Assembly (NCBI GenBank): GCA_036172245.1
Contig: JAYWIR010000048.1
Location: forward strand, 1,116,001-1,180,000
Reading direction: 5' to 3'
DNA: 64,000 bases
Source: Raillietiella orientalis
Lineage: Eukaryota
Positions 6,210 to 64,000 of this stretch are shown piece by piece; positions within the stretch are counted from its first letter, which is position 1, and every line of letters begins with the position of its first letter. A model generated the notes under the pieces. It was not told the DNA's origin, did no database searches, and saw nothing but the letters and a program-made list of their open reading frames with translations. The position numbers and the translations under genes were made by a program.

Positions 6210-6500
6210 AAATAATTTGAAGAATTAGAAAATGAAGATCCTGGGAACTGCTCGGTTCACACTTAAGAACTGATTGATGGTGAACCTCCTCAGGATCAAT
6301 ATAGAGCATCTGAAGGAGCAGACAGTAATGTGGGGGAAATGTGCAGACGGAGGAGTTTCGTCCTCGATGGATTTGCAGATATCTTCCCGGCTGCGGAAGA
6401 TGTGCAGCAAAAAATTATGCATGAGGCTCCAAACCTCGATCGAAGCATGCAAATGCCCGACGTGGTATCGACGGGGCACTCTGCGTCTACAAAGGGCCAC
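6210..6500 (+). mobile_element. pogo/Tigger-like transposase C-terminal remnant
   Basis: Frameshifted translation 'ELLGSH..ELIDG...RSFVLDGFADIFPAAEDVQQKIMHEAPNLDRSMQ' resembles the Tigger C-terminal pattern ELL.SH..EL...F.L..L..F......DPN.ERS. Confidence 0.5.
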
Positions 6501-7140
6501 ATGCACGTGGACCCGAAGAGAGGTGGAGACGTTCAGCCTGCGTTGCTAAGACTATCCCGAAAGGCAGCAAAGGTGCTTTTGCCGGTGTGCAGGTCGCCTT
6601 CGTGAATACGGTTTAGAATTTCTCTTCCTACTCAATCGCCCTGTCAACAGTAAACGAAGACTTCAAGTAGATTCTTTTTTTTTTCCTTTTTTTGTTGCGG
6701 TGTTTCCCCAGAAGGCCTGCAAGGACGCATCTGAAATTTTCCATCGCCTGTTTCTATCAGGATGGAGCCAGTAGCGTACTGTCACGCTGCCGGAAGATGC
6801 ACTGGAACCAGGGTTGCCAACAGAGGTTAATGGCTTTCGAAAGCCTGCGATTTTCCGGAAGAAGAATCTCCAGATTTCAATACCTAGGAATTCATTATTC
6901 TTATTAAATCATTCAGGGTTGCTTAATCGTCAGATTCAATAGTACAAAAATAAAATGCAAACAAGCAATTGATGACGTGAAATTGATGTCATTAAGCTAC
7001 TGCTGGACGTGCTCGATACATTTGTAAGGAGAGCGCCGCACTGCCGGTTTTATCACCTATAGTTAAAAGAAAACGTTAGAGCAGTCTGTAAATTCGACTA
7101 TAAACTACTACTGCTGTAAATTCTACAATTCAACAGAAAA

Positions 7141-10100
7141 GCCTTCGCGGGTGCCCTCGTGGGGCTGGTCAAGAGCAAGACGACGCCGAAAGACGTCGTC
7201 TCGATTGCAGGAGACTTTAACGTCCAACTGGACGGCAGTCGTCCATACGAAACGGATGCGGTGAACGCCTACCAGCGCAAGGCGAAGGATCTCGCCCCCA
7301 CGTGCACGGGGGCGAACCCCACGCTCATCGACCACGTGCTGCATTCCGAAGTCCTGGCTAATCCCATCCAGGGGATCTGACAACTGAGCTCCGAGATCTC
7401 GGACCATCCCCTGTTGAAGTGGAGGATGGAGTCGAAGAATCCCAGGAAGGAGAACGCAGTGCTCGGGGAGGCGCTCATCTGCATGTCCGAGTGGCATGAG
7501 TGCTACCCCCCCGTGCCAGTGCATAGTGGAGGCCTCGACCACCACTGAACGCGTGGACGACTGGGACGCCCTCAAACATACCATCCATTTATTCTCGGAC
7601 CTCCAAACCTCAGAAGCGTACAGGGAGTTCTACCAACACCAACACTTCTCCCCACTCTGAGTGCTGCAAGGATACCAGAGATGCTTCCTCGACAAGAGAG
7701 TCAAGAAAGATGTCGGACGGCTGGAAAAGCGGAACCGAACAGACACCTTCCACGTCCGTTACAATGACCAGGACTGCAGAACCTCAGAGCAAGCACTGGA
7801 TGCCTTCCAGAACCAGTACTCCGAGCAGTTCAAAAACAACTTTGCATCCTGGGGTGCAGGAACAGATTCTCCGCAACGTGAAGAAGCGCCTGGCCTCCCG
7901 TGAACAACATGAAGTGGAGGAAGACTTCACAGAGGAAGAGATCAAGAAGGCGTTCGACGGACTGCTCAAAGAGTGGCAGCGGACCCCGACAGCGTGCCCG
8001 TCACGCATTATCAGAGACACCTGCCCGCCTACCTGAGCCTATTTATCCAACTGCTGGACTGTACCATAGAAGAATGACGACTTCTCACCTTCTTCCACCG
8101 AAACAGTATGAGGCTGCCCCCCAAAGAGCGGCGGGACCTCCGCACCATCACCCAGTGGAGACCCATCTCTATGCTGAATTCGGATGCAAAGTGGATGGCA
8201 AAGATCTGGGCAAACCGACTGAAGAGCAAGCTGAATTCGGTGGTGTCTCCCACGCAGACGTGCGCCGTCCCAGCCAGATGCATGTGGAGCAACATCCAGA
8301 GCGTCCAAGCCCTCTTGGGATACAACCGTATCCTAGGGAACGACCTGGTGCTGGGTTTCTTCACCGACATTGAGAAGGTCTTCGACTCGGTGGACCACTC
8401 CATGCTGCTGAAGATCCTGAGCAGGCTGGGATTCCATAAGTTACTCGAACTCTGGGCGATTACCAAGATAATCGATGAATACAACACGCTGAAAGAAGAA
8501 TTTCAGACTTAGAGGAAATGATAGGAGATGAAAACAGTGAGCACGGTGCAAAAGAGTTAGCAGAAAACGACCTTCTCGAGAAGCAAAAGATATCATTACC
8601 AAAAGTAAAAAACCAAGCTAAAATTAGCGCGATTGCCTAAAGATGAAGATGGTCCAAGAAACGCAACATTGGAAATCAGAGTAGGGCAGTACATTTCCCA
8701 CATTCTGGGAGAGGCCAACTTTACCATCAGGGCTAACGTCGCAGAACATCGTCCAGCGAGCAGGACGTGCAGCGGGACTCCCTGAGCCCCATTCCTCTTC
8801 GTGATGTACATGGAGGTGAGCACCTTGGCCACCAACGAGGGTCGGCTAAGAGGCGTCACTCTGGAAGAGGAAAATTCCACGCACCTGGCCTACGCCAACA
8901 ACCTGTTCTTCGTGATGGCGGACAAGAGGGTTCAGGAGGTGTTCGTGGACATCATGCAGGTCATGGAATGCGGCCTCGGACCCAAGGTGAATTTCAGCAA
9001 GTTCCATCTGATCGCCATGGGAACACCGGACGTCATCCCACGGCTTCCAGATAGAGGACCAAGTAAAACATCCGAGAGTTCTCCTCAGAGACGAACCACC
9101 AGCTTTGGAGAAGCCACAGTGACCGACAATCCTGGCGCAGCTGGGAGAGGAAACCAGCCAGCACGTCGGAATCTTCTTCTCGCAGGACAAGGCCAACTTC
9201 TGGAACGGGGTAATCGGGCCGAAGTTTCTCTTCGCCGCGTCTTTCTTTCCCACCCACCCCCAAGGACGGAGAAGGAACTAGCAGATATCCAGGGGAATCT
9301 TGTCGGGAGTGGCCGAAGGCGAAGCTGAAGCACCCATGTCGCCCGCGGACGGGAGGAGGCACTGGCATACGCGCGACGTCGCCACTGCCGCGAAGCTCCA
9401 GGACCTCGCATGGGACGACTGGCTGCCCGTATTCCACCGCGCCTGCGCAAGACCGGCGCGCGGAACCCACGGTCTCATGTCTGCCATGGCGCTCCCAGCG
9501 GGCGGCTGGACAAGCATCGACCAAACATGGCTGACGATCCAGCGCCCCCTGAGGACCTGGAACCTGAAGATCGTTCCCAGAAGCAAAGAGCTCAGGGACA
9601 AGGAACTCACCAAGGTGATCCCGCTGTTCAGCCCCATCCCTTGGGACATGGAAACCTGGATCCACACATCGAAGAAGATGACGTTCCGGGATTGCTAGCG
9701 ACGCTCAACGAGTCCTCTCCCACATACAGAAAGTTCAAGGCAGGATAATCCACAGGATCCGCGAACTTTGCCAAGCCCAAGGCACAGAGTGAACCCCCAG
9801 ATCAAGAATTTAAAGATGCTGAAAGATGTCACCTCATCGGAAGCCATGGGAAGGATGAGAAGCAGACTAGGGGGACACTGCCCTCGACCCGCAGGAGATT
9901 GGGACGGTCCTCTAGAATGCCTCCTTGCCGCCGGACATTCAGGATTGCCTGCTGATGTTCTACCACGGAGGCATCCTGTATGGCACGAGGCTAAAGCACT
10001 GAACCGGGAGCCCCGACGACGACCCATGCCCGAGGGCGGATCGACGGAAGGTGAATTGCGCCTCGGCACCTGCCGAATCCTCGTCCAGGATTGGAGAATG

Positions 10101-10390
10101 CTGAGGCAGGCGACCGGAATGCACGACAGCTGGAGATGCTGCGAGGACTGTTTGAAGAAGACGGTGTGCCCCACTACAACCCCGACAATTTCTTCCTCAG
10201 GAGGACGACTCTTACGAAAGGCCACCCCCGAGCAATTTCCAGGACATCCTCCAAGGACGCCCGAAGAGGAAGATCAGCATACGTGCCTGCAGGAGAGTAT
10301 CATCCGGGACTCTCCTCCACTGCTTGCGGATGCTCAAATCCGCGGCCAGGACGATGCCGTGATTTTGCCCGCTCCGCTCGGGCCGCGGTG
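7141..10390 (+). mobile_element. L1/Tx1-clade non-LTR retrotransposon ORF2 remnant (APE endonuclease + reverse transcriptase), frameshifted
   Basis: EN motifs 'IAGDFN', 'IDHVL', 'SDHP'; RT motifs 'WRPISMLNSDAK..AKIWANRL', 'DIEKVFDSVDH', 'Q.DSLSP/FLF', 'LAYANN' (YADD equivalent), 'GPKVNFSK'. Confidence 0.9.
8442..8686 (+). pseudogene. prfA: Fragment of bacterial peptide chain release factor 1 (Wolbachia/Rickettsiales-like), nuclear insertion
   Basis: With two 1-nt frameshifts in A-runs (~8500, ~8611) it reads ELWAITKIIDEYNTLKEE/ISDLEEMIGDENSEHGAKELAENDLLEKQKISLPKVK/TKLKLARLPKDEDGPRNATLEIRVG; ends in the RF1 motif L(L)PKD.D..N..LEIR(A)G; much more A-rich than the flanking LINE. Confidence 0.8.
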
Positions 10391-10786
10391 AACCGGCAAG
10401 CGACCCACCGGTGGCCAAAGCGAAAGCGTTCGTCCGTTTGTTCTCATTTGTGCTTTATCGGTATGAGTGCGGAATGCAACCATACCGATCTTTGCCATCC
10501 ACGTTGCAACCCACCGCGAGTCGGACCGGGAAAGGTCTGTGAACTGTAATGAAATAGTCAAACGAACCTGCCGCTGCACTGCAGCGATCACCATTCAAAT
10601 CGGGAAATATTTTAATAGTAAGGAAGCGATGACTAGTGACTGAATAGTGACTCCACACCCACCAAGATCGAAACAGGGGTGGGTAAAACATCGAGGATTC
10701 TATGTAAGACCATCTACAACATCCACGATTGAAGGTTTTCTTTGCAGCCACGAAAAACCCGTGGACTTCGGCGCCCGGTGATTTAA

Positions 10787-11317
10787 CCCTTTGAGTGCCA
10801 CGGGCGCATCGATGCGTCCGACGGAAACCACCAGCGTGCGCCGTGGACGGCTCACCCATGAGGCTGGCAAATGTTTTCACCTGGTGCACGCGGCATAAGT
10901 TAACCACCATCGGGTGTTTGAGGTGGACGCGCACACTTGTGTTCTTATAATCGCCTTGGCAACGACAGCAAACAAAAATTCCATTCTTATCGGCTAACTA
11001 TCGTACATAGTTTATTCCATTTTTTTCTGACCTCTGTGATATCTTAAAAATGTGGATGAGTGATTGATTTATCCGAAATATAATGACAATTTCTAAATAG
11101 GTAATGCATGTTTGGGAAAAATGAAAATATTTTATTTACTGTGGTGTAAGTTAACAATTACAATGGTAACTTTAATCAGTACTTGATAAAGTCAGTTGGT
11201 TCCTCGATAGAGTACGCGGTACGCGAGAAAGCTTTCCGTCCACATGGATTGCAACTGCGACTCGCGTGAACACGGAACACGGAACGTCTAAATCTGATGA
11301 GATCAGCACTCTAAGGG
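10787..11317. mobile_element. piggyBac-type MITE
   Basis: TTAA (10783-10786) followed by TIR ccctttgagtgc; right end gcactctaaggg (11306-11317, 11/12 match) followed by TTCA (degenerate TTAA). Confidence 0.7.
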
Positions 11318-16610: not shown

Positions 16611-17943
16611 ATGAGTGAGGACAAGGAGCTGAAAGACCTGGTTGTTGAAGTATTGAGAAAAAATGGTACTTTGGGAAAAATAAAGGTCTGTGTGGAAATT
16701 CACTCCTAACTTTCATCCACTGTCATACTTATCGAATACAGGTTAAAATAAATCAGTGAGATAATGTACTTCCATCGTGCCATTGCTAGACCAAAAAATA
16801 ATGCAATAAAACAGAAAAACTATGTGCACTTTATTTCCTTAATTCTATTTCCAGGCTGAACTGAAGGCAAATGTTTATTTTGCACTAGAACAGCACAAAC
16901 ACTTGAAAGTAAGTTTTGTCTTTTTGTGTTTACCTGTAAAATGTCATTAATTTTTATTTCAGGAAAGAGCCTTGTTCCAGAATCCCGAACTAAGAAGCTT
17001 TCTGCTTACCCAGGAAGGAATCATTGTAGCCTCACTGGTCCAGGATTTTTTGCAGACATTCAACCTACAATTTTCTCTCAATGTCTTTAATTCAGAAACT
17101 TACACTAGTGAAGAATTCAACGTACTTAACAGGAATGCTCTTTCCAGAATGCTGAATCTCCCAAATGTAGGTAAACATACACAAATTGCAAGATTAGTGT
17201 ATTTGAGGTGTTTTAATGTTTTCATCAATTATTTTAGACAAGCAACCACTACTGAAGCATATAATCGACATAAAGAGAGATAAAACTGTGCTATTTCCTG
17301 AACACTCTGAGATGGAAGTTCAAAATTCTGAAACTCCTCACATGGAGAAACATGGTATTCACACTGAATATATGCATCAGCAGCTTGAAAGTGCTATTAC
17401 ATCTTCACTCACAGAAAACCGAAACAAGAATTATGCCACAGATAACATCAAACACTCTATAATGTGAGTGTAGGCAGTGTTATATGCTATGGATTCTCAT
17501 TTTTCTCAGAAAAGAAATTGAAAACTCAGAAATAGCAAGTGCTGCAGTATCTAATTCAAGAGCTATAACTTCAAGCAGTTTACCTTTACTGAAAAATTTT
17601 AAACACAATGCTAATCGTGATAATTTGCATGATCTGCAGAAACTATTTGTCTCAACGGAACATCAGAATCAACAAGAAGCCATGTCTGAATCAGAAACAC
17701 CTGTAGTCCCCATGTGTGAAAAGCATTCAAAAGATGGGCAGTGCAATTCTGCAGATGATAGCATATACAGCATAACTGAAGGTCCTTTAATTGGATCATC
17801 ACTAGATGACTTATCATATTTACAGGTTCGTTAAGCCGCTTTTATTTGAAGTTATAGTGTCCTTATAGGAGCAGCACCAGTTTGAAGATCAGTCTGTTTC
17901 CCATCCATCAGGCATAGGTAATGACTACATGGAAAGTGTCTGA
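16611..17943 (+). CDS. FGFR1OP: FGFR1 oncogene partner / CEP43-like centrosomal protein (LisH/FOP dimerisation domain), ~317 aa; exons 16611-16685, 16855-16908, 16963-17170, 17238-17463, 17510-17825, 17869-17943
   Basis: MSEDKELKDLVVEVLRKNGTLGKIK|AELKANVYFALEQ...EGIIVASLVQDFLQTFNLQFSLNVFNSE is the FOP N-terminus; C-terminal 'DQSVS..S...DYMESV*' matches the FOP tail; all five introns GT-AG with consistent phases; AATAAA at ~18092. Confidence 0.9.

Positions 17944-62395: not shown

Positions 62396-64000
<1,605 letters not shown>

Follow-up and report, generated by a model that had tools for sequence, protein, structure and literature searches.

Results

A LINE reverse transcriptase is interrupted by a 245-base insert

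The stretch of DNA analysed here, in the following called the window, is 64 kb long. On its forward strand we found a decayed ORF of a non-LTR (LINE) reverse transcriptase that is split into two parts. The left part (8078..8441, +) ends in ...SRLGFHK. It was recognised by the Pfam profile RVT_1 with an E-value of 5.8e-10 over profile positions 6-97 of 205, and by tblastn with P0002, a LINE relative with Exo_endo_phos domains and RVT_1, whose residues 522-625 were aligned to 8120-8434. The right part of the same reverse transcriptase (8687..9022, +) was located from its reading frames and from a tblastn match of P0002 residues 658-747 to 8762-9022 (E 0.008); a weak further match of P0002 at 9762-9998 (E 0.19) was left uncounted. 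The LINE itself is interrupted by stops and frameshifts. Relatives of its reverse transcriptase were 33-36% identical in a word-index search, and 6456 representative proteins were found at E<=0.001 among 1.84 billion representatives, the best being 44% identical. The upstream ORF at 7120-7380 had no Pfam match. Just past the recognisable LINE an open frame of 180 aa was observed on the reverse strand (10458-10997, -), for which Pfam gave no match.

Between the two LINE parts lies the insert (8442..8686, +, the orientation of the LINE). Its GC content is 0.396, compared with 0.56-0.58 in the LINE flanks, and along the sequence the GC content was 0.40-0.43 over 8400-8700 and 0.51-0.58 on both sides. 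The frame of the reverse transcriptase ends at 8440 in ...LLKILSRLGFHK and the LINE frame is back at 8687 as QYISHIL.... The initial annotation of this DNA had described an A-rich insert at 8442-8686 within the reverse transcriptase domain, with resumption of the LINE at QYISHIL; we confirmed both, and all reading frames quoted there for the insert were present. By BLAST against Wolbachia genomes the limits of homology were 8442-8685, within one base of those described. The right edge is fuzzy by up to 4 bases, because a common CAG can be aligned there after a 1-base shift.

In the assembly, the insert is joined on both sides to halves of one LINE reverse transcriptase. P0002 residue 625 was aligned at 8434 and residue 658 at 8762, leaving 27 LINE codons after the GF motif between these landmarks, compared with 32 in P0002. 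To judge from this alignment, the LINE would have lost at most about 5 codons (approx. 15 bases) at the insert, and a shortfall of 5 codons could equal the natural length variation among distant LINEs. When the junctions were inspected by eye, no target-site duplication and no convincing microhomology were seen. A junction 36-mer had no match in metagenome contigs.

The insert is read in three frames, here called pieces A (8441-8500), B (8500-8607) and C (8609-8686), which together are colinear with residues 43-118 of E. coli RF1. Read through three 1-base indels it corresponds to RF1 residues ~47-129 of 368. The A run at ~8498-8500 is short by one A and the A run at ~8603-8608 is longer by one A; the third indel is a 1-base deletion at ~8447. 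The stretch LPKD...LEIR.G at the start of RF1 domain 2 is included, and homology stops one residue before TGGEEA (approx. residue 129/368), downstream of which all sequence is LINE. In release factors, PxT is the motif of codon recognition and GGQ that of hydrolysis. The regions of both motifs are absent from the insert, which has only ~81 of the 368 RF1 codons. We concluded that the insert is without function, since it comprises only the N-terminal quarter of RF1, has neither the PxT nor the GGQ region and carries three frame-breaking indels.

The insert is a fragment of Wolbachia prfA

The insert is a gene fragment that originates from Wolbachia, a symbiont of insects and worms, and is derived from prfA, the essential single-copy gene of peptide chain release factor 1. 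In a blastn comparison with 98 sampled genomes the 245 bases matched 56 of the 60 genomes of the genus Wolbachia almost end to end, with 67-87% identity. The other 38, which represent further genera of this family, gave no match beyond 43 bases. The best match had 87% nucleotide identity and an E-value of 3e-77, and eight genomes were at 84-87%. With such an E-value per genome and 56/60 matching genomes of the genus, a chance likeness is excluded.

Three named Wolbachia genomes were reached by a scan of species-representative genomes with the wsp81F primer, and the prfA of all three passed the TIGR00019 cut-off. In one of the sampled genomes (G001) the insert match (C1:21877-22121) lies within a prfA gene at C1:21168-22223, which scored 483 bits at a cut-off of 423. 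In this genome and in G002, a second, sub-threshold TIGR00019 match each was observed (L012 and L013), RF2-like, at 272-278 bits and with one in-frame TAG in the matched frame.

The translated insert, with X at the breaks, shared 63/79 identical residues with the nearest genome (G043), 57/79 and 55/79 with PrfA of named Wolbachia, and 22/73 with E. coli RF1. A stretch of 17 residues, IIDEYNTLKEEISDLEE, was identical in PrfA of G001. The likeness to Wolbachia PrfA, which had been noted in the initial annotation, was thus borne out by direct comparison.

Profile and protein searches with the separate pieces gave little signal. Piece C alone matched TIGR00019 with 14 bits (E 0.017), below the family threshold of 423, and no match was obtained for pieces A and B. 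A Pfam search of the three pieces, taken separately, gave no match. A PDB search with piece B was likewise empty, and with piece C all nine matches were bacterial RF1 (E 0.13-0.73). When the ORFs harbouring pieces B and C, of 53 aa and 58 aa, were used in a word-index protein search, no match was found, a limit of the method and not evidence, and a scan with 8-residue patterns of the 58-aa ORF detected no relative. Several 5-residue words are common to piece B and Wolbachia PrfA.

The insert is nested in one Wolbachia clade

A maximum likelihood tree (GTR+G) was calculated from a codon alignment of 60 prfA genes and the insert. All matching genomes of the genus but one (55 of 56; the exception was G002, from which no intact ORF was extracted) provided genes, together with five genomes from other genera. 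A PrfA phylogeny had been proposed as a check in the initial annotation. The insert was placed inside the Wolbachia genus, in a clade of 12 genomes (G041, G029, G013, G044, G045, G039, G032, G038, G043, G046, G036 and G035) with SH-aLRT/UFBoot support of 100/100. Within this clade it was sister to (G043,(G046,(G036,G035))); this exact sister group was only moderately supported (81.5/92), because the insert contributes 245 bases. The named references from Psylliodes chrysocephala and Tribolium confusum belonged to two other clades, outside that of the insert. The branch of the insert had a length of 0.147 substitutions per site, compared with 0.005-0.06 in the ten short-branch members of the clade.

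Elsewhere in this single-gene tree a locus from a genome sampled as another genus of the family (L068, G087) formed a long branch within the Wolbachia-genus sample, and the genus members G017 and G006 were placed deeper than it.

An intact version of the fragment is present in a public sequencing run

One sequencing run, here called X1, was the only one listed for the window, with 4% of the sampled words; no RNA run was listed. When X1 was compared with positions 6500-11000, two short contigs covered just 8450-8534 (7 differences) and 8550-8685 (14 differences). Both homopolymer frameshifts of the insert were missing from these contigs: the A at 8498 is present, and the extra base at 8607 is not. 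The two frameshifts given in the initial annotation are thus real changes of the insert, to which the 1-base deletion at ~8447 was added in this study. At 8631, 8652 and 8654, where the window has a private base, X1 has the base of the clade consensus.

Past both ends of the insert the X1 contigs extend into prfA and not into the LINE. The flank on the upstream side was identical to G043/G046, and that on the downstream side to G041/G043/G013. As the contigs run into release-factor sequence, an intact, AT-rich bacterial prfA that is ~90% identical to the insert must exist. Over the LINE flanks no X1 contig was aligned, which is uninformative either way. A third X1 contig was weakly aligned to 10571-10616 (46 bases, 5 differences, 4 gaps), where no Wolbachia genome matched; this match is probably due to chance.

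The fragment decayed after insertion

We counted as private those changes in which the state of the insert was seen in none of ten clade members (G035 and G036 were left out). There were 26 private changes, five of which, in the first nine columns, were alignment artefacts of the 1-base deletion. Changes from AT to GC numbered 20 and changes from GC to AT 2, at 163 AT and 82 GC sites (Fisher p 0.009). The changes were spread over codon positions 1/2/3 as 7/9/10, and the GC content rose from 0.335 in the clade consensus to 0.398 in the insert. The same count applied to the ten control clade members showed no AT-to-GC excess in any of them.

We concluded that the long branch of the insert is the result of decay in a GC-rich nuclear setting and not of a divergent donor, because of the AT-to-GC excess, the even spread over codon positions and the unbiased control members. 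The strong drift from AT to GC is explained by the GC-rich surrounding genome. The donor was an ordinary member of the insert's clade, close to the bacterium in X1. In this respect our result departs from the initial annotation, which had considered a possibly divergent lineage; its reading of the insert as an old nuclear fossil is supported by the three frame-breaking indels together with the compositional drift and the spread over codon positions. From a neutral divergence of ~6-9% the insert would date back millions to tens of millions of years, if the substitution rates typical for arthropods apply.

Discussion

Origin of the insert

We favour a nuclear Wolbachia transfer as the likely origin of the insert, in which a piece of prfA was joined within a resident LINE, probably as filler in end-joining, and decayed afterwards. 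In such a scenario a double-strand break would have occurred within an already resident, old LINE copy, and a 245-base prfA piece from one Wolbachia clade would have been taken up as filler DNA during end-joining repair. Thereafter the captured piece would have drifted as junk in the host nucleus. A repair mechanism of this kind may be suggested by analogy: a passage in PMC3798261 states that numts enter the genome when double-strand breaks are sealed by non-homologous end joining. An uninterrupted copy of the LINE, which would give the empty site and with it the signature of break repair (a small deletion, microhomology), was not found in the window.

We infer that a bacterium was the direct source of the piece, and not a nuclear copy of earlier date. 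An alternative course, in which the prfA piece was copied into the break from an older and larger nuclear Wolbachia insert, is compatible with all observations, and part of the decay could then predate the arrival at this site. None of the observations directly favours it, the remainder of the 64 kb holds no further Wolbachia-like DNA, and we regard it as unlikely. Capture by the retrotransposon itself seems quite improbable. Here the LINE reverse transcriptase would have switched template to a prfA RNA and back, or an active master LINE would have spread the piece. It agrees with such a capture that the insert has the same orientation as the LINE ORF and that LINE sequence is found on both sides with little loss. 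An equal orientation is, however, expected at even odds by chance, and the capture needs two switches, the second of them back to almost the position at which the LINE RNA had been left. In addition, both the LINE and the insert are present only once in the 64-kb window, and the stretch was in no other sequencing run, which is weak evidence.

An error of the assembly, by which reads of a live Wolbachia were misjoined into the LINE, has to be considered as well. The junctions are known from the assembly only, and long-read errors also produce homopolymer indels like the two described here. A live prfA, however, would not contain 20 AT-to-GC changes distributed evenly over the codon positions together with many amino-acid changes, nor would it break off after 245 bases and be followed by the LINE frame found before it. 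Moreover, the genuine Wolbachia sequence of X1 is different from the insert at exactly these positions. Such a chimera or contamination is therefore very unlikely, with no more than a marginal chance of being correct, as the fragment does not have the sequence of a living prfA.

The motif LPKD...LEIR occurs in organellar RF1 too, and a piece of cDNA of a host mitochondrial release factor (MTRF1-like) instead of bacterial DNA could on this ground be imagined. The initial annotation had named a best match to a eukaryotic mitochondrial release factor as the result that would speak against its reading. The closest match was instead Wolbachia prfA, with the 84-87% nucleotide identity to eight genomes given above and a position nested within the genus in the tree, and the PDB matches of piece C were bacterial RF1 throughout (9/9). 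The host candidates MTRF1/MTRF1L were rejected on the blastn matches to Wolbachia and on the prfA tree, and the chance of a mitochondrial origin is negligible.

Comparison with known transfers

According to PMC3798261, about one in three of the arthropod genomes that had been sequenced up to 2007 showed Wolbachia transfer, which is now thought to be widespread. Transferred Wolbachia genes are described as mostly neutrally evolving fossils in PMC5541319, and in filarial nematodes such nuclear transfers (nuwts) and the history of Wolbachia associations are the subject of PMC12693587. The insert resembles the nuwts of arthropods and nematodes as a short piece of Wolbachia DNA that is pseudogenised, neutral and, in the assembly, joined to host sequence, and nothing categorical distinguishes it from them. 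Particular to the present case are the lone 245-base part of prfA inside the reverse transcriptase domain of a LINE, the GC-rich genome and the strong AT-to-GC drift. With numts and filler DNA at breaks it has in common the short foreign piece, the little loss of flank and the lack of a target-site duplication, for the insert as seen in the assembly; the donor here is an endosymbiotic bacterium and not the mitochondrion. Compared with bacterial RF1 (prfA, TIGR00019) it is colinear over residues ~47-129, including LPKD...LEIR.G, whereas it is a fragment without the PxT and GGQ regions and not a release factor. We concluded that the insert is most probably a genuine nuclear Wolbachia transfer of the ordinary kind and not a new kind.

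The insert records a past germ-line contact of the host's ancestors with one Wolbachia clade, and, on a small scale, it shows clearly how symbiont DNA has moved toward the base composition of a host rich in GC. Inserts of this class occur frequently and are as a rule inert. Their value is local, for genome annotation and possibly for the dating of an infection; recognition of the insert avoids false calls of a Wolbachia infection or of contamination.

Surroundings of the insert and the host

When the whole 64-kb window was compared in four pieces with five Wolbachia genomes, nothing was detected beyond 8442-8685 except matches of 25-28 bases (E 1e-4 to 1e-2). An Rfam search gave no match. A Pfam scan of 237 long ORFs, namely 230 of at least 130 aa and 7 of 105-123 aa from 15.7-22.2 kb, matched nothing but RVT_1, a single Runt exon and a single FOP_dimer ORF, and among the 230 longer ORFs only the first two. 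The GC content of the window ranged from 0.33 to 0.71; it was low at 16-20 kb (0.33-0.39), and between 28 and 64 kb it was 0.60-0.71. Many of the long ORFs, which occur in all six frames, are apparently a side effect of the high GC content. The CpG observed/expected ratio was 0.85-1.07 in 15 of 16 bins of 4 kb and 0.60 in the AT-rich bin at 16-20 kb; with values near 1 there is thus no vertebrate-like depletion of CpG.

An ORF on the reverse strand (63362-63781, -) matched the Runt domain (PF00853) with an E-value of 1.9e-13 over profile positions 89-129 of 129, the domain part lying at ~63587-63709. It represents the C-terminal third of the domain and aligned to chains of human RUNX1/RUNX2 (E 1e-10), from which it departs at many positions that these chains have in common. 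The ORF probably belongs to a gene of the Runx family of transcription factors, as one of its exons. Judged from the coding content of the window, the host of the insert is a metazoan, because both this Runt-domain exon and the FOP_dimer ORF are found in it.

There is a slim chance that the host belongs to an animal lineage without known, or without present-day, Wolbachia; its genome has an unusually high GC content and is sparsely represented among known sequences (LINE relatives <=44%). Were this the case, the insert would be the sole trace of an ancient infection by Wolbachia of this clade, and X1 would hold a living descendant close to the donor, by which the transfer and a host shift could be dated. 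The insert would gain greater weight only with a host from outside the known range of Wolbachia hosts.

The ORF in the AT-rich stretch at 16951-17283 (+) matched the FOP N-terminal dimerisation domain (FOP_dimer, PF09398) with an E-value of 2.6e-12. Its look-alikes in the Atlas were FOP/LisH clusters with a high similarity score (0.90), and it may be an exon or a retro-pseudogene.
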